In this document: positions 3,760 through 29,654 of the stretch, one piece after another | How the letters are laid out: each line of letters starts with the position of its first letter | How positions within the stretch are numbered: the first letter of the stretch is position 1 | Source: a virus | DNA length: 64,000 nucleotides | Reading direction: 5' to 3' (one strand) | IMG/VR virus record: IMGVR_UViG_3300037010_002464 | The notes under the pieces: model-generated | What the model was told of the DNA's origin: nothing | The model's database searches: none | What the model saw: only the letters and a program-made list of their open reading frames with translations | Program-made: the position numbers and the translations under genes

Positions 3760-4168
3760 AGTTGTCAGCGAGGACTCGCTTGCGCATTCGAAGGCCTTCG
3801 TCTTCGTGCTCGAGGAGTACCTCGCTCTCGTCAAGGCAGGCCACGCAGACTATGACTTGCCGTTCACGAACGGTTCTCTGGTAGCCTATGCGCTGTTGGG
3901 TGACCAGGTGATCGGCGCGTCGGTCTGGAGCTATGACCCTCCTAAGCGTGCGGCGTGGGTGCTGTTCTCTGCGGTGGCTGAAGAGCACCGCAAACAAGGC
4001 ATCTACAAGCAGCTCATCCACTTCGTTGAGCAGCAAGCAATTCGCAAGGGTGCGGCAGCGCTCTACTCAGGCGTGCATGTCACCAATGACGCCATGATCG
4101 CGGCGGCTCAAGCCAGCGGCAGAACCCTAGGCTGGTATCGTACAAAGAAGCCGCTTTCAGCTAAATAG
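3746..4168 (+). CDS. GNAT acetyltransferase
   Basis: V-EEHRKQGIY acetyl-CoA motif A; VHVTN-AM motif B. Confidence 0.85.
   Translation: MQLLKVVSEDSLAHSKAFVFVLEEYLALVKAGHADYDLPFTNGSLVAYALLGDQVIGASVWSYDPPKRAAWVLFSAVAEEHRKQGIYKQLIHFVEQQAIRKGAAALYSGVHVTNDAMIAAAQASGRTLGWYRTKKPLSAK
4162..4167 (+). promoter_or_regulatory. T4-late-like promoter box TAAATA (representative of about 20 copies)
   Basis: TAAATA lies just upstream of genes on + at 4162, 8875, 11155, 14717, 15918, 21375, 25111/25125, 25660, 29804, 30223, 35270, 46880 and on - at 5668, 8534, 27190, 37837, 41046, 49172, 56220, 56661, 61564. Resembles the T4 late TATAAATA. Confidence 0.8.
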
Positions 4169-17382: not shown

Positions 17383-17385
17383 GCC

Positions 17386-17562
17386 ATGACGGCCGTCTTG
17401 TACTTGCTGTTTAGCGTTCTGGCTGGCTTTGGGCTGCTTGTTGGCCTAGAGCACATGAAGAACTCGAACGCGAAGGGTGAAGACGGCCGAGCAATGGGCG
17501 TCTTCTTCCTGATCGTCGGGTAGGTGATCTTTTGCGGTGTTATGGCCGTAAACGCCCACTAA
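17386..17562 (+). CDS. Small two-TM membrane protein, interrupted by an in-frame TAG at 17521
   Basis: MTAVLYLLFSVLAGFGLLVG...MGVFFLIVG*VIFCGVMAVNAH. Confidence 0.4.
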
Positions 17563-17580
17563 CTGCCCTCGCCCCTCAAG

Positions 17581-17604
17581 GCCGCTTTTATTAGCGGCTT
17601 TTTT
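17581..17604 (+). terminator. Intrinsic terminator
   Basis: GCCGCT-N6-AGCGGC-TTTTTT. Confidence 0.75.
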
Positions 17605-17619
17605 CATTCTGGATTTAGC

Positions 17620-17814
17620 ATGACCCAAGAGCTGAGAATCGTCGAAAGAAAAGAGGACTCTTTGTGGGTCCGTGTTAGAATGATTGAAATCAAGAAGGGT
17701 GACGTTTTCCGAATGTTTGAGGACGGCACCCCTATTGAGTGGAGCGGCAAGACAGAGTTTGAAGCCGCTTACGACGCCGATGAAACAGGCGTCATCACGA
17801 AAGGGAATACTTGA
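17620..17814 (+). CDS. Small hypothetical protein
   Basis: ORF whose stop overlaps the DNA polymerase start. Confidence 0.55.
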   Translation: MTQELRIVERKEDSLWVRVRMIEIKKGDVFRMFEDGTPIEWSGKTEFEAAYDADETGVITKGNT

Positions 17815-20800
17815 GCTTCGTCTCCACGTATTATGACAAACGACAAGCAAAGGTGCTTGTCTGGGAAAAGCTAGCCAGCGGGCAGCGTGTTCGTAAGCTC
17901 TACGATCCTCCCTATTATTTTTACAGACGAGATGACGCAGGGCCGTTCATCTCGACTTCGGGCGTGCACCTCAAGAAGGTGAACTGCTCGTCATCGAGCG
18001 ACTTCGACGAAGCTATTGCCGATGCTCAGCTTCGACGCTTGACGCTGTTTGAGTCCGATGTCAATCCGCTCGAGCGGATCCTAATGGATATCTACTCGAC
18101 GAAGCCTGCACCTGAGCTGACTATCGGCCTCCTTGACATCGAAGTTGACTATAACCCAGACATTGGCTATGCGGGCCCTGCCAATCCCTACGCGCCGATC
18201 AACGCTTTCACCCTGTGCGTCAACGGCCGGATGTGCACGGTCGCCGTGCCGCCGAAGAGCTGGGGCCCAGATGACAAGCTGCCTGCTGAGCTGAGCGAGG
18301 TCATCCTGGTCACCAATGAGGTTGAGCTGCTCGAGCTGATGCTCGACTTCCTCCAACCTTGTGACGTGCTGTCGGGCTGGAACTCCGAGTTCTATGACCT
18401 CCCGTACATCGCCAAGCGGATCGAGCTTGTCATGGGCAAGCACGTGCTTGATAGGCTAGCGTTAGAAGGTGGCCCGAGTCCTCGGTGGACTGAGAAGGCA
18501 AGGTTTAAGCACTCGAAGGAGAAGGACCCTGTCATCGACCTGATTAGCCGGGTCCACCTCGACTACCTCCGTCTCTTCCAAAAGTTTGACCTGACCAAGC
18601 GTCAGTCCTACTCCCTGAGCAACGTGTCGCTTGAGGAGCTGAAGGAGGACAAGGTTGAGTTCGACGGCACGCTTGCTGAGCTGTACAACAATGACTTCGT
18701 TAAGTTCGTCACCTACAACATCCATGACGTGACTCTGCTGGTTAGGCTCGATGCGAAGTTCCGCTACATTGAGCTGGCTAACCAGATGGTGCACATGGCC
18801 TCAGTCAACTTTGACTCGGTCTTCGGCTCGGTGCAGCTGATCGACACGGCCATCATGAACTATGCGCACAACACGCTGCAGCGCATCGTCAATGACCGCA
18901 ACGTGCGCCCTGAAGGCGACCCGGTTGAAGGCGCTATCGTGGTCACGCCGAACGTCGGCTTCTACCGGTGGATCGGCGCTTGTGACATCAACTCCTTGTA
19001 CCCAAGCACCATTCGCTCGCTCAACCTGTCCCTCGAGAAGCTCGTAGGGCAGATCATCGGCCCGTCGGACCTCGACAATGGCTGGGTTGAGGTCAAGCTG
19101 CCCAGAGGCGTTAGCACTCACATCGTTTCGAAGAAGTACCGGGTTGACGTGGTCGTGCACCGCAACGCAACCACCACCCGTGCCGTCTGGACGTACTACA
19201 AGGACCTTGACGGCAACGGGGCGACAGATACCAATGTCCGCTACGGCAATCGAACCGAGAACATCACAACGCCGCAAGATGACGCGGTCTATGACGCCAA
19301 CGAGTACGGCTGGCGCGTGTGGTCCGCCGTGGCTCTCGACCCTGAAAGCCCATTCAAGGACTTCATGCTCGATGTTAAGTTCGATCATGACCCGCAAGTG
19401 CTCGCGCTGCCTGCCAATGTCGTCGTCGACTACTGCAAGGAGAACAAGTGCGCGGTCTCGGCTTACGGCACGATCCTCGATCAGGGTAACGGCCAAGGCC
19501 TGGTCCCTGAGGTGCTGACCTCCTGGTTCTTCGGTCGGAAGGAGATGCAGGCTGAGAAGAAGAAGTACGGCAAGCTAGCTGACAAGCTGCTCGCCGAAGG
19601 CAAGACGGAGAAGGACCCTGAGGTCATCGAGGCGAAGCGCCTAGCAGGCTACTACGACATGCTTCAAGGCGTGCGCAAGGTGCTGCTCAACTCCACCTAC
19701 GGCGCTATGCTGAATGAGTACTGCCGCTTCGGCGACCCACGCATCGGCGCCTCGGTCACCTACAGCGGTCGACAGATCACCAACACGATGATCAACACGG
19801 TGTCGAAGAGCCTGGCGCCTACAGGTCAAGCTCCGCTGATGCTGAAGACCTTTGACCCGCACTCGAAAAAGGACTCGAAGACAGGGACCGACGGCAAGCA
19901 TAACTTGCGCTGGGGGCAAAACGCATACTCGATCATCATCACGCCTGGTGCCGGCCCCATCTATGGCGACACCGACTCGGTCTACTTCACATACGAGAGC
20001 ATCGTCAAGGGCATCGATGACGTTGACGTGCTGGTTGAGGCAGCGAACGCTATCGCTGATGACATCAATGACGCCTTCCCGCCGTTCATGGTCTCAGGTT
20101 TCAACTGTCAGCCAGGCTTCGAGACTTTGATCAAGGCCAACCGTGAGCTCGTGTGCCGGACCGGCCTGATTCAGGCCAAGAAGAAGTACATGATGCTGGT
20201 CGTCGACAAGGAAGGCAAGCGCATCAACCCGGGCGACGAGGACGAGCTGAAGACCATGGGATCGGACATCCGCCTCTCGTCAACGCCGACCGTCATCCGT
20301 CACATGCTGACGGACGTGGTGATGAAGCTGCTCAATGAACGGTCCAAGAGCGAGATCGACAAGGTGGTCATCGACTTCCGGAACTCGCTTGGCACTACTA
20401 CGGTCACTGACCAGATCAACCCGCTTGATATCGCGATGGTCACCTCGGTCAACAACCTCGACGAAGCGTGGACGCTGTGGGACAGGCTCGAACGCAACGG
20501 CTTGAGTAAGGTCAAGATTGCGCCAAACGCCCGCAACGCTGTCAACCACAACTACATGCTGGAGCATTTTAAGGTGCTAGACGGGGTCCCTATTAAGTCA
20601 GGGGATAAGATCAAAACCCTGTGGCTCCTAGATAACGCTTTCGGCTTCAAGAGCATCTCCTTTACCTCAGAAACTGAGGACTTGCCCCTTTGGTTTACCC
20701 GCAATTTTCAGGTAGACCGAAAGCTAATGGAGCAAAAGCTCGTGGACAATAAGCTCGAACTCATCTTCACCCCGATGAACTGGGAGGTCCCTACCTACCA

Positions 20801-20834
20801 ATCTCAGCTCATCAACAACCTCCTGGACTTTTAA
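17811..20834 (+). CDS. Family B DNA polymerase (T4 gp43-like)
   Basis: Exo DIE, GWN---YD, YN-HD; Pol DINSLYPS, K-LLNS-YG, YGDTDS, KKKY. Confidence 0.97.
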   Translation: MSFVSTYYDKRQAKVLVWEKLASGQRVRKLYDPPYYFYRRDDAGPFISTSGVHLKKVNCSSSSDFDEAIADAQLRRLTLFESDVNPLERILMDIYSTKPAPELTIGLLDIEVDYNPDIGYAGPANPYAPINAFTLCVNGRMCTVAVPPKSWGPDDKLPAELSEVILVTNEVELLELMLDFLQPCDVLSGWNSEFYDLPYIAKRIELVMGKHVLDRLALEGGPSPRWTEKARFKHSKEKDPVIDLISRVHLDYLRLFQKFDLTKRQSYSLSNVSLEELKEDKVEFDGTLAELYNNDFVKFVTYNIHDVTLLVRLDAKFRYIELANQMVHMASVNFDSVFGSVQLIDTAIMNYAHNTLQRIVNDRNVRPEGDPVEGAIVVTPNVGFYRWIGACDINSLYPSTIRSLNLSLEKLVGQIIGPSDLDNGWVEVKLPRGVSTHIVSKKYRVDVVVHRNATTTRAVWTYYKDLDGNGATDTNVRYGNRTENITTPQDDAVYDANEYGWRVWSAVALDPESPFKDFMLDVKFDHDPQVLALPANVVVDYCKENKCAVSAYGTILDQGNGQGLVPEVLTSWFFGRKEMQAEKKKYGKLADKLLAEGKTEKDPEVIEAKRLAGYYDMLQGVRKVLLNSTYGAMLNEYCRFGDPRIGASVTYSGRQITNTMINTVSKSLAPTGQAPLMLKTFDPHSKKDSKTGTDGKHNLRWGQNAYSIIITPGAGPIYGDTDSVYFTYESIVKGIDDVDVLVEAANAIADDINDAFPPFMVSGFNCQPGFETLIKANRELVCRTGLIQAKKKYMMLVVDKEGKRINPGDEDELKTMGSDIRLSSTPTVIRHMLTDVVMKLLNERSKSEIDKVVIDFRNSLGTTTVTDQINPLDIAMVTSVNNLDEAWTLWDRLERNGLSKVKIAPNARNAVNHNYMLEHFKVLDGVPIKSGDKIKTLWLLDNAFGFKSISFTSETEDLPLWFTRNFQVDRKLMEQKLVDNKLELIFTPMNWEVPTYQSQLINNLLDF

Positions 20835-21444: not shown

Positions 21445-22164
21445 ATGAAACTCTCAGCACAAACCATCGCGTCAGTTGATAACCTCCTCACCACGCTGAA
21501 CACCATCGGCATCGAAAAGGTAATCGTCGAGCCAGGCAAGATCCGCGCCATCGACGAGAAGCGCACCGTCGGCGTTGTCACCGACCAGCAAGTGCCCGAC
21601 CTCGAGGGCAAGACCTTGGCCGTCAGCCGCATCAAGGCCTTGAAGGATCGGCTCAACTTGGCCAAAGCCCAGGGCAACGTCGGCATCACGGCTACCGCGG
21701 GCTCCGGCACCGACATCAGCATGCTCGAGCTGGCCGCCGGCCGCTCCAAGACCCAGTTCCGCTGCTCGGCCTCTGACGCTGTCAAGATCCCCAAGGCGAT
21801 CAACGACACGCCGGCTTATGAGGTCCTCATCTCGGTCAAGCAGATTCCGCTGATCGCTCAAGCCGACTCGGCCATGGCGACCGACGGCATCACCATCGCC
21901 TCCAAGGACGGCTCCGTGGTCTCCATCGAGCTCGTGGATTCGACCAAGGACGTGTACACCTTCGAGGTCGAGAAGGCAGCATCGCCAGTCAACGGTCAAA
22001 AGGCCGGCAGCTTCGTCTTCAAGTACACCAGCAAGTCCCTGCTGTCCCTGCTGCGTGAAGCCGCCAAGACCGCAGGCGATGACGTTAAGCTGAAGATCGG
22101 CTCGGGCGGCATGCTGTTCGTCGACGTCGCTGGCTACAACTTCTTCACGCTGCCGCAAGCATGA
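21445..22164 (+). CDS. Probable sliding clamp (gp45/PCNA-like)
   Basis: 239 aa, two-domain beta-rich pattern, strong codon bias, near the DNA polymerase; no diagnostic motif. Confidence 0.4.
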   Translation: MKLSAQTIASVDNLLTTLNTIGIEKVIVEPGKIRAIDEKRTVGVVTDQQVPDLEGKTLAVSRIKALKDRLNLAKAQGNVGITATAGSGTDISMLELAAGRSKTQFRCSASDAVKIPKAINDTPAYEVLISVKQIPLIAQADSAMATDGITIASKDGSVVSIELVDSTKDVYTFEVEKAASPVNGQKAGSFVFKYTSKSLLSLLREAAKTAGDDVKLKIGSGGMLFVDVAGYNFFTLPQA

Positions 22165-22739
22165 GCTGGCTGAAGGCGTTCATCCACAAGTACATCCTGA
22201 CTAAGGCCCCTTGGTCGGTGACTACCGATGACGGCAAGACCCTGCAGGTGTTGGACTACAACGCCGCATTCGTGCAGGGTCTTCGCGAGGAGCTGAAGGA
22301 CCAGATCCACGGCGTCAAAACCGACGCCGACGTGGTCACCCTTTGGGTTGGTCGGTACAACCATGAGCGTGAGGCTCCTCGCCTCGACGTTGTGCATGGT
22401 GACATCACGGCTGACGGCCGGGTAAGCATCAAGCTCGAGTGGAATGACGCCTTCATCCGCATGCTGCAAAATGCAGGCATTGAAGGCGCCACCGAAGACG
22501 AGCTTGTGCGTGTCTACCTGGCGACCGTGACGGCCAATGCGGCTCGTGACGTTGACGATGACCTGGTCATGGACAACGCGCCGATCCCACCTGAAGCGCT
22601 CGCTCGCGCCGAAGGAGGCAAGGACACGAAGCCTTCCTCGAAGGACGTGACCGCTATCCTCGACAGCATGGACCCTGACGTGCTGAAGATGTTCGAGAAG
22701 GACATCCGCAGCCGTGCCGCCCGCAGGAAGCGTGGCTAA
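22161..22739 (+). CDS. Hypothetical protein
   Basis: ATGA-coupled ORF with an internally repeated (D/E)(Y/W)N-AF motif. Confidence 0.7.
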   Translation: MSWLKAFIHKYILTKAPWSVTTDDGKTLQVLDYNAAFVQGLREELKDQIHGVKTDADVVTLWVGRYNHEREAPRLDVVHGDITADGRVSIKLEWNDAFIRMLQNAGIEGATEDELVRVYLATVTANAARDVDDDLVMDNAPIPPEALARAEGGKDTKPSSKDVTAILDSMDPDVLKMFEKDIRSRAARRKRG

Positions 22740-23334: not shown

Positions 23335-23917
23335 AATGTACTCCGTCGACGATGCATTCGGTTCCACGTTTAGGAACTTCAATTCTTGTTCGACGGCTGA
23401 TTGTCATTCGTTGCCTAGTTTCATCGGTGATGGGATCACGTTTCCTTCCGAGCTGAGTTACGCTAATAGCAAGCCGGGTTTGAAATGTATGCCGTCTACC
23501 AGAACTAGATGCACCAATGTTTTTCTTATGTTCCTCCGAGAAGGTTCGGCCTTTGAGAGCATTAGAAAGTCTTTGTCGTGTTATAGTTGAAAAACCCTGC
23601 CGCCGCGTTTAGGCATAAACCTTAAGCTGCCGTTGAATATGACATGACGATTGATGATCAGCTTGTCACGGCGGTGCTCTAGAATGAGCTGTTGTTCAAA
23701 ATCATATGCATCAGTTGCTGCCCAAAACTCAGCAATAATTACCCAAGTCAAAGTTTTCAAATCCTAGACCTCTAACATACTTTGATGACTTGTATAGTGG
23801 CAGGTCTTGATCGGCTGGCAAAATGTTAGCTTCTCGGTAACCAATATAGAATTGACCTGTCTGCTTATGTGTAAGCATGTAGACGTACGGTAGGGTTTTT
23901 ATGCATTCATTAGTCAT
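23335..23917 (-). pseudogene. Decayed GIY-YIG homing endonuclease
   Basis: PYVYMLTH--TGQFYIGYR, then frameshifted IIAEF...AYDFEQQLI and a NUMOD3-like ITDETRQRM; AT-rich. Confidence 0.75.
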
Positions 23918-24926
23918 TGACGTTTCAAACATCCTCTTCAGGGTCGCCGCGATGCAAAAACATCAAGGTGGTCCAGCTAATTATAGCGCCAGCATAGACG
24001 ACTTAGTTGGCTTGTCTATGCACATAGCTATTATGAGCATCTACAAGTGGTACAAGAAGTTCAAGCCGGACTTCTTGGTCTTCAGCTTTGAAGGTGGCGG
24101 CAACTGGCGGAAGAAGTACACGGCGGAGCATACGATGATCCGGCGGCAGTACAAGGCCAATCGGATTCCCGACCCCGAGATGGCCCACTTCTACAAGCTC
24201 ATCGACGCCTTCAAGGAGACGATGAAGGAGCACACCTCTATCTGCTGCATCAGCGTGCAGGATATGGAAGGTGATGACGTAATCGCCGCCTACTGTCAGA
24301 TCAACGCTTCGCCCGAGAACCGCATCACGATCGTGTCAGGAGACAAGGACTTCACACAGCTCACCAAGCTGCCGAATGTCAAGCTTGTCAACCCTGACAA
24401 CGGCAAAGAGCGCAACCAGCCAGGCGACAAGGACTACGAGCCCGACATCGACTACTGGCTCTTCCTTAAGTGCGTTCGCGGAGACAGCGGCGACAACGTG
24501 CCGTCAGCGTATCCACGCGTCTTTGAGAAGAAGATCCGTGAGGCTTACAGCGACGATTACACACGGCTGAACTTCATGAACGCTACGTGGAAGGACGAGA
24601 ACTTAACCGAGCACCGTGTCGGCGACCTCTACAAGCACAACGAGGTTCTCATGGACCTAACGAAGCAGCCCGATGACATCAGGCTGAAGCTGTTAAAAGG
24701 CGTCATCATGCAGTCAGATCCAGCGGCTCTCGCCTCTTACTCGCACTTTCACTTCTTGCGGTTCTTGGGCAAGTACAAGCTGAACAAGGTGGCCGAAGAG
24801 GCCAACAAATTCATCGACATGTTCATGAACAACCAACGCTACCTCAAGGGTGACAAGCCTAAGGCTCACACGGTTCTCGTCGAGAAGCCGGCTGAGCCTG
24901 AAGGTGACGGCCTTCTCGCATTCTAA
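23901..24926 (+). CDS. T4 RNase H-like 5'-3' exonuclease
   Basis: IDVSN, NWRK, YKANR, EGDD, SGDKDF-QL, GDSGDNVP. Confidence 0.92.
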   Translation: MHSLVIDVSNILFRVAAMQKHQGGPANYSASIDDLVGLSMHIAIMSIYKWYKKFKPDFLVFSFEGGGNWRKKYTAEHTMIRRQYKANRIPDPEMAHFYKLIDAFKETMKEHTSICCISVQDMEGDDVIAAYCQINASPENRITIVSGDKDFTQLTKLPNVKLVNPDNGKERNQPGDKDYEPDIDYWLFLKCVRGDSGDNVPSAYPRVFEKKIREAYSDDYTRLNFMNATWKDENLTEHRVGDLYKHNEVLMDLTKQPDDIRLKLLKGVIMQSDPAALASYSHFHFLRFLGKYKLNKVAEEANKFIDMFMNNQRYLKGDKPKAHTVLVEKPAEPEGDGLLAF

Positions 24927-25057: not shown

Positions 25058-25170
25058 AGAGGATATTTACCAAAACTCGAGTCGTAAACATCATCCTCAC
25101 GGTGTTTGCATAAATATTGGGCGGTAAATAAAATCGAGCATAGCTCGATCACATATCACACGGGAACACC

Positions 25171-25662
25171 ATGGCAACCGACAAGCAAGTTACGAAGACA
25201 GCCGAACCGGCTAAGGATCCGAACGCCAACAAGGGCGGGATCATCATGCATCCGACGCGCCTCAAGCACGTCTTCTACGTTGACGTGAACGACAGCGGTC
25301 AATTCCGCGAAGTCGCTGTCATCAAGGAGTGGCCGAACGGCTCGCTGTCGTACATCGACATCGGCCTGATCGACCAAGTTGACCGCGGCCGCCTGAAGAA
25401 GGTGCTGATGTCGGGCCACGCCGACAAGTACGAGCTGTGGGACCTGCTCAGCCAAGAGCGCCTGTCGAACGGTAAGAACGCCCTCGATTACTTCCACCAG
25501 ATGACCCGGACCAAGAAGGCTGCAGGTCACATCGACTCCCTGATGGGTCAAGGTGGCGGCTCGCTCTTCGACGCCGACCTCCGGCCTGAAGGCAACGTCG
25601 TTGTCGGCTCCGCATTCACGGACACGACATCCGGCGTCGTTGACTCGACCAGTCACCTGTAA
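25171..25662 (+). CDS. Hypothetical late protein
   Basis: Two TAAATA boxes upstream; strong codon bias. Confidence 0.75.
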   Translation: MATDKQVTKTAEPAKDPNANKGGIIMHPTRLKHVFYVDVNDSGQFREVAVIKEWPNGSLSYIDIGLIDQVDRGRLKKVLMSGHADKYELWDLLSQERLSNGKNALDYFHQMTRTKKAAGHIDSLMGQGGGSLFDADLRPEGNVVVGSAFTDTTSGVVDSTSHL

Positions 25663-25665
25663 ATA

Positions 25666-25960
25666 CAGGTCCGCAGCCTTCGGGCTGCAAACAAGCGCAA
25701 GCTTGGTGAGCCGCCTCCACAGCTCGAACTCGAGCGGAGGATTCAGGCACCTGACGGGTGTCCGGCTCACGGCTTGTGCACATAGCGATCCTAGGTACGC
25801 GCCGCGTCCGGATCGGCATAGCAGATCAGAGGGCGCCACCCCTCTGTCATTCTTCCCAAGTTGCGGCACGTGCTGCATGTAGCTTGGCTCATCAGCTAAT
25901 CTTCAAAGCTCTTCGCTTCACGGCGGAGTCATCTTTGGCGTCTTAGCAAACTGACCATGG
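25666..25960 (+). ncRNA. Candidate ~290-nt multi-domain structured RNA (ncRNA or long leader)
   Basis: Starts after TAAATA (25660); six consecutive stem domains with G-U pairs, a UUCG loop and a three-way junction; overlapping ORFs look spurious. Confidence 0.65.
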
Positions 25961-25970
25961 AGACATCATC

Positions 25971-26501
25971 ATGAAACAGCTTCTATGCTTCTTTGCTCTA
26001 ATCTTCGCCCTTACCGCTCACGCAGACAATGTCGAGTGCCCTGCAGCCACGCTTGTGGCTGATCAAACTCTCGCTGAGTACACAATGCAAGTCGCGACCG
26101 CTGACGGTCATAAGGAGCCAAAGTACGTCGTCGGCGTGCTAAAGGTTGAGAGCAAGCTTGGAGAGAGCAAGCACCGTGTTGTTAAGCAGGGTAGCAGCAC
26201 CTTCTATGGCGTTGGGCAAGTCTCAATCGGCGCCGCAAAAGCCGTCATGAAGCGCTTCTCCGACCTCTGGAACGACTTTGACACCCGCAGCGATGAAGAA
26301 CTGAAGGCCCGGCTGATCTTAGATGACCGGTTCAACGCTAGCGTCACAAGCAAGTACCTGCTAATGATGGGAGTCAACAAGAATGCGGCAAAGGGGATCG
26401 CCGCTTACAACCTAGGTGAAGGAGGCGTACAGCAGGTCAACGCTGCCACACATCCTTATACCCGCAAGGTCATGACAGCCGCTGCTGCATACAAGCTATG
26501 A
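25971..26501 (+). CDS. Secreted lytic transglycosylase (SLT-like)
   Basis: Signal peptide ...LTAHA; catalytic VES, YGVGQV, AAYNLG. Confidence 0.85.
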   Translation: MKQLLCFFALIFALTAHADNVECPAATLVADQTLAEYTMQVATADGHKEPKYVVGVLKVESKLGESKHRVVKQGSSTFYGVGQVSIGAAKAVMKRFSDLWNDFDTRSDEELKARLILDDRFNASVTSKYLLMMGVNKNAAKGIAAYNLGEGGVQQVNAATHPYTRKVMTAAAAYKL

Positions 26502-26835
26502 CCCATTCAAGCACCGAGTCCTGCTTGTAGATTGCGGCCAGCCACTGAACATCGCCGTTACCTGTGCGAATGCACAGCATTCGATCAGGCTGCGCTGACG
26601 GCCAAAGCATAACATAGGCTGAGGAGACGGCTGGCTTGCTAATTGCCAGCACAGCCGCATTCGCATCGAAGAACACAGGGTTGATACGATGGCGTGCTGC
26701 GTTAAGAGCGCCAGCTTCGATGCTGGAAAGCCTAGTAATTTTTACAGTCACGTCGTCAAGGCTATCAATGATGTTCTGCTGGAGCGTCAACAGGATGCGG
26801 CGCTGCTCGTTCTCAAACAATGCTTGTAGCTTCAT
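26470..26835 (-). CDS. MKL/LxLQQ-family small protein
   Basis: MKLQALFENEQRRILLTLQQNIID. Confidence 0.7.
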   Translation of the reverse strand: MKLQALFENEQRRILLTLQQNIIDSLDDVTVKITRLSSIEAGALNAARHRINPVFFDANAAVLAISKPAVSSAYVMLWPSAQPDRMLCIRTGNGDVQWLAAIYKQDSVLEWVIACMQQRLS

Positions 26836-27185
26836 TACCAGCTCTTAATCGGTGTTGATCCGTCGATGAGCCGCGCCAGAGCTTCGTCATAAGAAGCGAC
26901 CTCCACACGACTGTTTGAGACGCTATACAGCGATTTATCGCGTAAGGGTAAGTAACTTCTGAGGTGATGCCCAAGTTGAACTTGAACAATCGCGTCAAAG
27001 CCAAGCTCCCTTACTCGTCGTTGAGCGTCTTCATCATGGTCTGACCTAGCCCAGTGTTTGAATGCCTTGTCAACCGGCACGATCTTAACCTTGACGCTGT
27101 CAGGCGCGTCATCAATGAACCGCTGTTGAAGCTTTAGCAGCTGTTCTTTAGACGATGATTCAAGCAATGACTGTAGTAGCTCCAT
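26835..27185 (-). CDS. MKL/LKLQQ-family small protein
   Basis: MELLQSLLESSSKEQLLKLQQRFID; ATG 4 nt after TAAATA. Confidence 0.7.
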   Translation of the reverse strand: MELLQSLLESSSKEQLLKLQQRFIDDAPDSVKVKIVPVDKAFKHWARSDHDEDAQRRVRELGFDAIVQVQLGHHLRSYLPLRDKSLYSVSNSRVEVASYDEALARLIDGSTPIKSW

Positions 27186-27235: not shown

Positions 27236-28249
27236 ATGGAGTTGGAATCCCTTATCAGGCAATATGTGCGGCTAGGCAAGCGCTCCCCGAAAGGGTTTGA
27301 GCCTTGCATCTGTGCGGCTTGCAATGACTACAAGACTCGCGGCGGCTTCAAGTTCGAGAGCGGCGTCATCGGGTACCATTGCTTCAACTGTGGGCTCGAC
27401 ACCAAGTTTGACTCGACCGCCTACAGCACTCCGTCTGAGAAGTTCCGCAACCTGCTGCAGTCCTTCGGCGTCGCCGAGGAGGAGCTCTCCAAAGCTATCG
27501 GCAAAGCGTTCATCGAGCGGCAGGGATTCTCACCCGCAGCACTCCAGCAAGCAAAGCCGACCTGGTCGCCGCCCAAGACCTTCGAAGCGCCACCCGGAGC
27601 GGTACCTGTGATGTCTGATGACTCTCCTTGGTGTGAGATCGCTCGCCTCTACCTGCAGGAGCGGGCGCTTGACCCAGCGGCCTACGGCTACCTCGTTAGC
27701 GATAGCCCAAAGCTTGCAGGGCGAGTCATCATCCCCTATTACCACCGTGACAGGCTCATATATTGGCAAGCGCGAGCGCTTATTGATACAATGGATCCAC
27801 GGTACTACAACCCGCCGGCCTCCGACAAGGAGAAGCTCATCTTCAACTATGATGAGCTGCAGACCGGGTCAGGTAACCTGTATGTCACTGAAGGTGCGCT
27901 TGATGCGTTAAGCATCGGCTCCGCGGTGGCGCTCTCTGACAGCCACGCAAGCGAGTGGAAGTTTCAAGAGCTACGGAAGGCGGCCTCCCACGGCCGCAAG
28001 ATAGTGTTCGTCACCGACAAGAACAAAGTCGGGTATGACCTAGGCGTCGCGGCCCTCAAAGAAGGCTGGAGCATAGCAGTCATGCCCGACGGGCTCGATG
28101 ACGCTAACCGGTGCAGAATGCGGTTTGGGCGGCTTTGGCTGCTTAATCACCTCGCCTCCACTAACGCCTCGGGCATTGCGGGAGAGGTGCTACTACGCAT
28201 GAAGTGCGACCGGACAGACCCAAAACGAAAGCAGAAACATGACCGTTGA
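27236..28249 (+). CDS. DNA primase (T4 gp61-like)
   Basis: Zn finger C-AC...YHCFNCG, RVIIP, Q-R, TOPRIM VTEG-LDA, D-N, DDAN. Confidence 0.9.
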   Translation: MELESLIRQYVRLGKRSPKGFEPCICAACNDYKTRGGFKFESGVIGYHCFNCGLDTKFDSTAYSTPSEKFRNLLQSFGVAEEELSKAIGKAFIERQGFSPAALQQAKPTWSPPKTFEAPPGAVPVMSDDSPWCEIARLYLQERALDPAAYGYLVSDSPKLAGRVIIPYYHRDRLIYWQARALIDTMDPRYYNPPASDKEKLIFNYDELQTGSGNLYVTEGALDALSIGSAVALSDSHASEWKFQELRKAASHGRKIVFVTDKNKVGYDLGVAALKEGWSIAVMPDGLDDANRCRMRFGRLWLLNHLASTNASGIAGEVLLRMKCDRTDPKRKQKHDR

Positions 28250-29654
28250 AAAGGAGCGTTTGCTCCTCAGCTACCTGGTGAACGACTCGACGCTGTTCAC
28301 CCGCACGAACCACATCATCGACCCGAAGTACTTTGACCCATCGCTGAAGAGCGCGGTCACCTTCATCAAGGCCTACTATGAGCAATACAAGGGCCTTCCG
28401 TCACAAGCGCAGCTTTATGCTGAGCAAGGCCTCACCCTCCCTGCGGTACAGGGCATTCCGAGCGAGGCTAAGTACGCAGAGACCGAGCTCGAGACCTTTT
28501 GCCGTGACAAGGCGATTGAGCACGCCATCTATGCCAGCGTCGACCTGCTGAAAGACCAGAAGCTGGCTGAGATCGAGCGCCTCATTCGAGACGCCATCAC
28601 CATCAGCCTGCAGCGTAACCTAGGCACCGACTACTTCGCTGACCCAGAGGCTCGTCTCAACCTGCTGCAGACTCAAAGCAAGCCGGTACCTACGCTGTAC
28701 CGTAGGCTCGACGAAGCGCTTGGCGGCGGCCTGCCTCGGAAGGGCATGATCATCTTTGCGGCGCCGTCAGGTGTGGGCAAGTCGTTGACCATGTCCAACG
28801 TCGCCCGCAACCTAATGATGCAGGGGATGCACGGCATCTACTTCTCGCTCGAGCTGTCCGAGGAGATGGTGTCGAAGCGTTTCGACTCGATGTTCACTGG
28901 CATCAGCCAAGGCGCGATCCTCACCGACATCACGAAGACCAGCATCCAGGTGCGGAAGGCCCAAGAGCGGGCCCAAGGCACGCTAATGATCAAGCGCCTG
29001 CCCGAGTCAGCTACCAACGCTAACCACCTCAAGGCTTACCTCAAGGAGTACGAGCTCATTCACAAGCGAATCCCCGACTTCGTGGTCGTCGACTACCTTG
29101 ACCTGATGGCCTCCAACGAGAAGGTATCGGTTGAGAACCAGTTCATCAAGGACAAGTACGTAGCTGAAGAGCTGCGCGCCATCGCCGATGAGAACAACCT
29201 CATGATGATCACGGCTTCGCAGCTGAACCGTGGCGCGCAACAGATCGAATCGCTCGATGAGTTGAATCAAGCTCACATCGCAGGCGGCATCTCGAAGATC
29301 AACACCACCGACAACCTGGTTGCAATCATCCAGACCCCCCAGATGAAGGCGCGCAACGAGATGGTCTTCAAGATGCTGAAGACACGGTCATCAGCAGGCG
29401 TGGGTAGTTACTTCATCATGAAGTTTGACCCGGTCTCCCTACGGCTGTCTAACCTCGAGGAGGACGAGCCGCCTGTCACGCTCGCTGACTCGCTCAGCAA
29501 GTTCAGGAAGCCTGGCGGGGCCGCTCCTTCACCTGCTAGCGAACCGCCGCCCTGGGAGGACGCCGGCTCATCAGGGCTGGGAAGCCTTCCACGGCCCACT
29601 CCTAAGCACGGCTTAGGCCTGCCTAGCAACCTCGATGACATCTTCAAAGTATGA
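28239..29654 (+). CDS. Replicative DnaB-family helicase (gp41-like)
   Basis: APSGVGKS, FSLELSE, VVDYLDLM, TASQLNR, LKTR. Confidence 0.93.
   Translation: MTVEKERLLLSYLVNDSTLFTRTNHIIDPKYFDPSLKSAVTFIKAYYEQYKGLPSQAQLYAEQGLTLPAVQGIPSEAKYAETELETFCRDKAIEHAIYASVDLLKDQKLAEIERLIRDAITISLQRNLGTDYFADPEARLNLLQTQSKPVPTLYRRLDEALGGGLPRKGMIIFAAPSGVGKSLTMSNVARNLMMQGMHGIYFSLELSEEMVSKRFDSMFTGISQGAILTDITKTSIQVRKAQERAQGTLMIKRLPESATNANHLKAYLKEYELIHKRIPDFVVVDYLDLMASNEKVSVENQFIKDKYVAEELRAIADENNLMMITASQLNRGAQQIESLDELNQAHIAGGISKINTTDNLVAIIQTPQMKARNEMVFKMLKTRSSAGVGSYFIMKFDPVSLRLSNLEEDEPPVTLADSLSKFRKPGGAAPSPASEPPPWEDAGSSGLGSLPRPTPKHGLGLPSNLDDIFKV

Follow-up and report, generated by a model that had tools for sequence, protein, structure and literature searches.

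The 308 bases between two co-oriented genes of an uncultured jumbo phage are a real, selected, non-coding structured stretch that lies outside every known RNA family. With roughly even confidence, we read this gap as a cis-acting non-coding part of the mRNA shared by the two genes, built of two modules, and not as a free-standing RNA gene. The 5' module (module A, 25673-25779; folded and compared as 25666-25782) has kept its shape and not its sequence, whereas the 3' module (module B, 25781-25970, 190 nt) is conserved in sequence and, judged by peptide, profile and DNA alignments, corresponds in antisense to the first third of a GT2-like glycosyltransferase gene, of which it is a fossil. An earlier note on this DNA had described 25666-25960 as one densely structured RNA of about 290 nt; we find instead two modules with different evolutionary behaviour, and what the note had missed is that half of the 'RNA' is a gene fossil in antisense.

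Genomic context of the gap

The DNA analysed here (the window, a stretch of 64 kb) is part of the phage genome, and the IMG/VR contigs with relatives of the gene flanking the gap are 147-389 kb long. The gap (25663-25970) separates the genes P0002 and P0001, with genes of a replication module on either side:

17811-20834: family-B DNA polymerase, replication module
23901-24926: 5'-3' exonuclease, replication module
25171-25662, plus strand: P0002, the upstream gene, 163 aa (open reading frame, function not assigned)
25971-26501, plus strand: P0001, the SLT-like gene, 176 aa (Sec-type signal peptide ending in AHA, SLT/g-type-lysozyme-like domain)
27236-28249: primase, replication module
28239-29654: DnaB-type helicase, replication module

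Every gene from the exonuclease to the SLT-like gene is on the plus strand, and the gene order (exonuclease, P0002, gap, SLT-like gene, primase, helicase) is the same in every relative examined. P0002 is conserved beside the 5'-3' exonuclease gene in jumbo-phage contigs, with 123 homologs found; considered also as a candidate RNA-binding partner, it has no match in Pfam or PHROG, the Atlas likewise gave none, and its AF2 model is poor (pLDDT 54). A metagenome scan with P0002 as the query returned only distant relatives (41-55% identity). The downstream gene had been called a secreted transglycosylase, and this agrees with its signal peptide and with weak, consistent matches to PF01464 and to g-type lysozyme: the PF01464 score is 16.1 bits (cut-off 21.3), 7 of 13 orthologs match this model weakly (best E = 0.002, below the gathering score), and comparison with the PDB yields goose-type lysozyme (E = 0.017). 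The invariant E60 precedes S or T, and there is an A-Y-N-x-G motif. These weak but consistent sequence matches suggest that P0001 is an SLT/goose-lysozyme-like protein with a signal peptide. In L010, one of the relatives, the called start of the SLT-like gene (4154) is probably wrong, as an ATG at 4121 restores the signal peptide that all orthologs have.

Among the fetched relatives closest by P0002, a homologous gap is present only in L008 (ENA scaffold, ERZ19026137), where P0002 is 95% identical to that of the window and the gap is 320 nt long; the element is thus carried by two metagenomic genomes only. Relatives with 74-82% P0002 identity (L009, L011-L013, L028, L029 and L033) have gaps of 64-199 nt, in which a strong hairpin after the stop codon is followed by a hairpin chain of 100-130 nt before the Shine-Dalgarno sequence (SD), and several of these gaps contain a TATAAT-type box. 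The gaps of all relatives fold better than shuffles (z = -3 to -6), with a hairpin chain in each.

The window and L008 also differ downstream of the gap. Positions 25997-26110, which encode the end of the SLT signal peptide and the mature N-terminus, are only ~50-58% identical to L008 at the DNA level, with a 6-nt indel, whereas the adjoining stretches are 80-90% identical, which marks 25997-26110 as a local divergence or recombination hotspot. Between the SLT-like and primase genes (26470-27185, minus strand), there are two small genes in the window and one in L008, and ~330 nt at 26500-26830 are absent from L008.

Folding of the gap

On the plus strand, 25666-25960 folds with -133.6 kcal/mol (z = -5.25), and none of 100 shuffles was as good, which answers the comparison with shuffled controls that the earlier note had proposed; the minus strand of the same segment has z = -1.96, in line with its view that the G-U pairs favour an RNA of the plus strand. 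After G+C regression, the gap region ranks third of 425 overlapping 300-nt segments. All stems that had been listed exist in the sequence, as checked one by one, and the suspected GGUC/GACC closure beside the ribosome-binding site is seen in the MFE structure as CAGGUC/GACC-UG next to the SD. The parts of the element, all on the plus strand, are:

25655-25669: small hairpin ACCUG-UAAAUA-CAGGU spanning the P0002 stop codon (sequence, fold)
25673-25688: hairpin 1, GCAGCC-UUCG-GGCUGC, 6-bp stem with a C(UUCG)G tetraloop (sequence, MFE)
25695-25779: Y-shaped three-way-junction arm (Y arm), 85 nt, 9-bp and 8-bp stem and two hairpins (MFE, L008 comparison)
25786-25815: hairpin 3, CGAUCC/GGAUCG (stem invariant in comparison with L008)
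25827-25855: hairpin 4, CAGAGGG-CGCCAC-CCCUCUG (stem 25827-25846), with the U-rich tail UCAUUCUUC (terminator scan)
25856-25887: hairpin 5, CCAAGUUGC.../GUAGCUUGG, with three conserved G-U pairs (MFE)
25895-25947: hairpin 6, GCUAA.../UUAGC, long interrupted stem-loop (MFE)
25959-25973: Shine-Dalgarno GGAG (25959-25962) and the ATG of the SLT-like gene (25971) (sequence)

The stems of the Y arm are GCGCAAGCU/GGCUUGUGC plus GUGAGCCG/CGGCUCAC, and its junction is formed by CCUCC/GGAGG with GCUCG/CGAGC and by GGCACCU/GGGUGUC. Nearly all of the folding signal is concentrated in 25666-25782 (z = -6.0, with the MFE structure making up 31% of the ensemble), whereas 25781-25972 by itself is marginally structured (z = -2.0, a level reached by 6 of 200 shuffles). 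A coding stretch, 22200-22520 inside the ORF 22161-22739, reaches z = -4.86, comparable to the gap, and strong z-scores in this genome therefore extend to coding DNA and are not confined to intergenic regions. Strong folding (z = -4.64) is also found at 17383-17815, a stretch with a canonical intrinsic terminator (GGCCGCU-UUUAUU-AGCGGC and then a U run) and an apparent 64-codon ORF directly upstream of the DNA polymerase gene.

Searches for known RNA families

Searching the whole window with Rfam 15 (4227 models) gave nothing at the gathering score, and a search of 25600-26020 with E up to 10 yielded best E values of 3.8-8.7, all snoRNA or lncRNA noise; ARAGORN found no tRNA or tmRNA gene in the window. 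A known RNA family is ruled out by these searches, among them the Infernal/Rfam search that the earlier note had recommended; the note had not recognised the RNA as a tRNA, tmRNA, RNase P or riboswitch. The INPHARED phages show no homology to the gap, and exact-motif scans of IMG/VR with two conserved 21-mers found none. With GOLLD, ROOL, HEARO, group I introns, tmRNA, RNase P and 6S RNA the gap shares a length of a few hundred nucleotides, multiple stems and a phage context; unlike these large structured Rfam RNAs, it matches no model, has no interrupted gene or associated protein gene, and has a very narrow distribution. On our reading, it belongs with the structured intercistronic or leader RNAs of phage operons.

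Module A keeps its shape while its sequence diverges

Module A is ~60% identical between the window and L008, roughly the neutral rate, and its fold is kept: that of L008 folds independently to the same shape (z = -6.06), and independent folds of the two complete gaps give the same architecture. When the L008 sequence is placed on the 103 pairs of the window MFE structure, 75 pairs are unchanged and 11 pair despite a change on one side; 7 pairs have double compensatory changes, and 9 are broken, most of them in the inner junction hairpin, which aligns poorly. Overall, 95.6% of the cells are paired; sliding the partners by 1-3 columns lowers this to 33-42%, and only 3 of 500 shuffles did equally well. 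Six of the seven double compensatory pairs lie in module A (two in hairpin 1, four in the Y arm); the C(UUCG)G loop of hairpin 1 is retained while two pairs of its stem swap, and G-U pairs shift position between the two phages. The G-U pairs and the conserved loop suggest an RNA of the plus strand, on which both neighbouring genes are encoded. In both, the plus strand of module A is more stable than the minus strand by ~5 kcal/mol, although the minus strand folds well too (z = -4.2 and -3.7). Divergence at a neutral rate, combined with a fold at z = -6 and six double compensatory pairs, indicates selection on the fold and not drift, and we infer that only the shape of module A is selected. The collection of homologs with a look at covariation, as the earlier note had advised, thus produced one close homolog (L008) with seven double compensatory pairs and a preserved fold. 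These changes are suggestive of a conserved structure in the sequence comparison, with covariation statistics that are weak because only two sequences carry the element.

The Y arm appears to be dispensable for the gene pair in general, because the relatives with 74-82% P0002 identity have shorter gaps that lack it. With blastn-short, a repeat finder and a covariance model, no second copy of the Y arm or of module A was found in the window or in 22 related loci, which rules out a repeated or mobile element for the sequences examined; the 13-nt palindrome of L008 (see below) is not a repeat family either.

Intercistronic hairpins that are processed by RNase III are known from T7 early mRNA, and stabilising hairpins stand at the 3' ends of phage and bacterial mRNAs; a site of the RNase III type consists of about two turns of double-stranded RNA that the host enzyme cleaves. 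In its predicted fold, the Y arm offers a stacked stem of 9 + 8 bp. It resembles the processing and stabilising hairpins in that a long, near-continuous double-stranded arm with a small bulge stands between co-oriented cistrons after a stop codon, and in that the shape is selected and not the sequence; it differs from them in ending in a three-way junction and not in a simple loop. Hairpin 1 is directly followed by AAACAAG, with no U-tract.

Module B is constrained in sequence

Module B is 92% identical to L008, with 15 substitutions and one 13-nt hairpin insertion. Six of the substitutions fall in paired bases (one pair broken) and nine in loops, bulges and linkers, and the frequency of substitution in paired bases is about half that in unpaired bases. 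The synonymous differences between the window and L008 are 0.37 in P0002, 0.42 in the primase, 0.56 in the exonuclease and 0.60 in the SLT-like gene. Comparison of the ~8% divergence of module B to the 37-60% at flanking synonymous sites shows strong sequence constraint, and the conserved block continues through the first seven SLT codons, synonymous sites included. On these alignments, module B is probably constrained as a non-coding sequence, unless a recombination tract reset its identity: the alignment of the window with L008 is a mosaic (50-97% identity), and the high identity of module B could come in part from a more recent recombination tract.

Since the stems of module B are mostly invariant, they are silent for or against pairing. 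Hairpin 3 has three differences from L008, all in the bulge or loop; it forms in L010 too, within a GT2 coding sequence, and not in L009. Hairpin 4 has one compensatory pair (C-G to A-U), and its core, AGGGCGCCAYCCC, is common to the window, L009 and L010; just 3' of it, L008 carries the insertion, an extra 13-nt GC hairpin (GGCCCGUCGGGCC). The helix of hairpin 5 is invariant, the sole difference lying in a bulge, and the changes in hairpin 6 are mostly from U-G to C-G, with one pair broken. When hairpins 3 and 4 were extended to L009 and L010, the covariation term was unfavourable, which gives these hairpins no wider support. Hairpins 4 and 6 pass a loose terminator scan only, and the site count (6) is close to that in shuffles (5.7). 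Hairpin 4 is weakly terminator-like, with a poor U-tract; together with its tail and the GC hairpin inserted there in L008, it may give partial termination.

On neither strand do the window and L008 share a conserved ORF: the 26-codon ORF on the minus strand of L008 is interrupted by a stop at its tenth codon in the window, and the 13-nt insertion of L008 shifts every frame that crosses 25850. A hidden small protein gene is ruled out by this comparison.

Module B is a fossil of a glycosyltransferase gene

The L010 gap is 652 nt long and is filled by a minus-strand gene, P0123 (218 aa, L010:3466-4123), which stands head-to-head with the SLT-like gene, the two starts being interlocked in CATG; its 3' end and the end of the P0002 homolog overlap. 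P0123 is a real gene, with homologs down to 29% identity, four of them with PF00535, and one PHROG match; PF00535 was found on P0126, P0128, P0129 and P0132, and P0123-P0128 are the GT2 genes of related jumbo phages. The remnant in the window is:

25791-25972, minus strand: fossil of a GT2-like glycosyltransferase gene, codons 1 to ~60, interrupted by stops and a frameshift (peptide, profile, DNA alignment)

Like the intact gene of L010, the fossil shares CATG with the SLT start codon. The minus-strand peptide MMMSPWSVC*DAKDD of the window and MLMSPWSVCQASKDD of L008 are in register with MTFSIDVHVLASKDD of P0123 from the same start codon, and past the frameshift the peptide GWRPLICYADPDA matches KGMAPFVSYVDPDD of P0123, which is the DxD region conserved in distant GT2 homologs. 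A six-protein GT2 profile scores 4.9 bits in the window and 5.5 bits in L008, compared to a mean of -1.8 and a maximum of 5.2 in 300 shuffles. The alignment of the window DNA to the GT2 gene of L010 beats 300 of 300 shuffles, and L009 has the same core. An intact GT2 ORF is absent from the window, where the fragments AKDD and YADPD remain and about two thirds of the gene are gone. The gene is thus intact in L010, a fossil in the window, L008 and L009, and absent from L011-L013, L028, L029 and L033. Compared to the GT2 genes of related jumbo phages, the remnant has the place, the orientation and the N-terminal and DxD-region codons of the L010 gene; unlike the intact genes, it is broken by stops and a frameshift and kept as non-coding sequence.

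In L010, the SD of the SLT-like gene lies within GT2 codons 3-4, and the start of the GT2 gene and the true start of the SLT-like gene share one CATG; from this we conclude that the SLT leader and the 5' coding region of the GT2 gene were once the same DNA. That exactly this third of the GT2 gene survives, and is conserved, is explained if the DNA doubled as the SLT leader.

Promoters and the TAAATA box

The window contains 25 TAAATA boxes, compared to 7.9 expected, and none of 100 shuffles had as many; most of the boxes precede a start codon by 4-40 nt and are on the correct strand. The box is similar to TATAAATA, the late promoter of T4 (PMC3014915), and to ATAAATA, a motif that has been proposed for the jumbo phage CBB (PMC5259590). 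The claim that a single RNA starts here at a late promoter is not supported: the box is a genuine, over-represented, promoter-like motif of this genome, but at this site L008 reads TAACAA. In the window, the box at 25660-25665 includes the TAA stop codon of P0002; no box was found in this gap in any other relative examined, and a promoter scan found no sigma-70-type promoter in the gap. A probable promoter region of the two genes lies upstream of P0002:

25105-25170, plus strand: probable P0002-SLT promoter and leader (promoter scan; conserved in 11 relatives)

This region contains TAAATA at 25111 and 25125, an overlapping sigma-70-like TTTGCA-N18-TAAAAT, an SD, and a hairpin (ATCGAGC-loop-GCTCGAT) with a loop that varies across the 11 relatives. 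The simplest reading is that both genes would be co-transcribed from the P0002 promoters.

The conserved block upstream of P0002, seen likewise in L008-L013, L028, L029, L031 and L033, has two TAAATA boxes 8-10 nt apart, then the hairpin and then CACATAC...GGAG, with a reverse-oriented TATTTAC ~100 nt upstream; this control region is sampled better than the gap element. Elsewhere in the window, many TAAATA boxes stand 4-8 nt before an ATG with no SD between them, for example at 4162, 14717, 27195 (minus strand), 37842 (minus strand), 46880 and 56225 (minus strand), and if transcription starts ~6 nt after the box, as in T4, such mRNAs would be leaderless or nearly so.

The ribosome-binding region

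In the initiation region (25940-26010), folding does not exceed that of shuffles (z = +0.22), and the initiation regions of five relatives are also unstructured by this comparison. With 4-6 bp, the CAGGUC/GACC-UG long-range helix is short, and the multiloop that it closes spans 280 nt. The predicted probability that the SD is unpaired is 0.18 for an RNA that starts at 25650 and 0.27 for one that starts at 25671, that is, about the same.

These results bear on a comparison with T4, in which the genes e (lysozyme), soc, 49 and I-TevI have inhibitory leader structures (reviewed in PMC3014915): a short local helix sequesters the SD or the AUG, and a late promoter lies within its 5' strand (PMC3014915). 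The locus resembles the gene e system in that a late-promoter-like box and a structured leader precede a cell-wall-degrading enzyme in a T4-like phage; it differs in that the initiation region is open, the only box lies 300 nt upstream and is not conserved, and moving the 5' end leaves SD accessibility unchanged. Because the ribosome-binding region is unstructured and SD pairing is independent of the 5' end, timing in the style of gene e is not supported. The earlier proposal of a regulatory leader that times a cell-wall enzyme is thus retained as far as a non-coding leader under selection is concerned, and not as regards the timing, given the open initiation region (z of at least 0).

Interpretation and alternatives

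In the reading that we favour, the element is probably cis-acting. P0002 and the SLT-like gene would be co-transcribed, and module A, directly after the P0002 stop codon, would be a 3'-end, processing or stability element that could block exonucleases or be a double-strand-specific cleavage site uncoupling the fates of the two cistrons. Module B would be the leader of the SLT-like gene, with four ordinary hairpins followed by an open ribosome-binding site. It would once have doubled as the antisense of the 5' coding part of the divergent GT2 gene, with the starts interlocked in CATG, and when the GT2 gene died in the lineage of the window, the piece that doubled as the SLT leader would have been kept and the rest lost. 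A stability or processing role for module A and an open leader in module B are favoured because the ribosome-binding site is unstructured and SD accessibility does not depend on the 5' end.

We consider it unlikely that the gap instead encodes a discrete, stable ncRNA of ~185-290 nt that starts from the TAAATA at 25660 and acts in trans or binds protein. The over-representation of the box near gene starts and its likeness to the T4 late promoter and the CBB motif speak for such an RNA, as do the position of hairpin 1 with its UUCG loop, which a start ~6 nt past the box would place at the 5' end, and the terminator-like hairpin 4 with its U-rich tail, a possible 3' end (unless transcription runs on to the SLT-like gene); the loops and linkers of module B are conserved too, as those of a tertiary fold or a protein platform would be. 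However, L008 has the whole element with TAACAA in place of the box, the box in the gap is absent from other relatives and in the window is built on the P0002 TAA stop, the U-tract of hairpin 4 is poor, and neither an Rfam match nor a second copy in the window or the 22 related loci was found. A discrete, tertiary-folded RNA of ~190-290 nt, acting in trans or as a protein platform, whose constrained half came from the GT2 antisense, is quite unlikely; if true, it would mean that a functional structured RNA had arisen de novo out of a gene fossil. Even less probable, in our judgement, is a leader of the T4 gene e type, in which read-through transcripts would hide the SLT ribosome-binding site and transcripts started at TAAATA, without the pairing strand, would be translated. 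In its favour, such a mechanism is established for T4 lysozyme (PMC3014915), pairing is possible between CAGGUC (25666-25671) and GACC-UG next to the SD and, in L008, between GUCCC and GGAGAC, and a start ~6 nt past the box at 25660 would fit the geometry and remove the pairing strand. Against this stand the short helix that closes a 280-nt multiloop, the nearly equal SD probabilities, the unstructured initiation region in the window and five relatives, and the lack of TAAATA here in L008; moreover, no early/late contrast would arise, because the P0002 promoters are themselves TAAATA boxes.

It is also improbable that the gap is a collection of mostly functionless leftovers, namely an ordinary hairpin after the gene, a Y arm inserted as a chance or selfish palindrome, and a GT2 pseudogene in decay, with an apparent conservation that would stem from recent recombination of the two lineages. 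Half of the gap is demonstrably gene fossil, module B is barely more structured than shuffles, the alignment with L008 is mosaic, its identity ranging over 50-97%, relatives differ freely in the length and content of the gap, and L008 gained a 13-nt palindrome, all of which could be expected of leftovers; what argues otherwise is the ~8% divergence of module B compared to the neutral 37-60%, with substitutions that avoid breaking pairs, the z = -6 fold and six double compensatory pairs that module A has kept at a neutral rate of divergence, and the finding that the Y arm is not a repeated element. A replication element acting at the DNA level (an origin, a single-strand initiation signal or protein-binding palindromes) is very unlikely. 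An origin of replication is not supported by the cumulative GC skew, which has no inflection at 25.7 kb; there are no iterons, direct repeats or AT-rich unwinding stretch, G-U pairs that vary and a UUCG tetraloop are typical of RNA, and the element is absent from relatives with the same replication genes. These observations outweigh, in our estimate, the location between the exonuclease and primase-helicase genes, the well-folding minus strand of module A (z = -4.2 and -3.7), the conservation of module B in sequence beyond shape, and the presence of three GATC sites within 40 nt.

Implications

Metagenomic jumbo phages are nearly blank at the RNA level, and according to the T4 review, functional characterisation has yet to be achieved for any riboswitch or small trans-acting RNA even in T4 (PMC3014915). 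For ncRNA scans, the lesson of this gap is that dense hairpins with a strong z-score may be a structural module plus a sequence-conserved gene fossil. If the Y arm is a processing or stability element, it would be a possible compact insulator part for phage engineering. The locus offers a clean, datable case of phage leader evolution, in which two genes had interlocked starts, one of them died, and only the piece that served as leader continued to be selected, and beside this constrained leader piece stands a Y arm that evolves fast and yet is conserved in shape.
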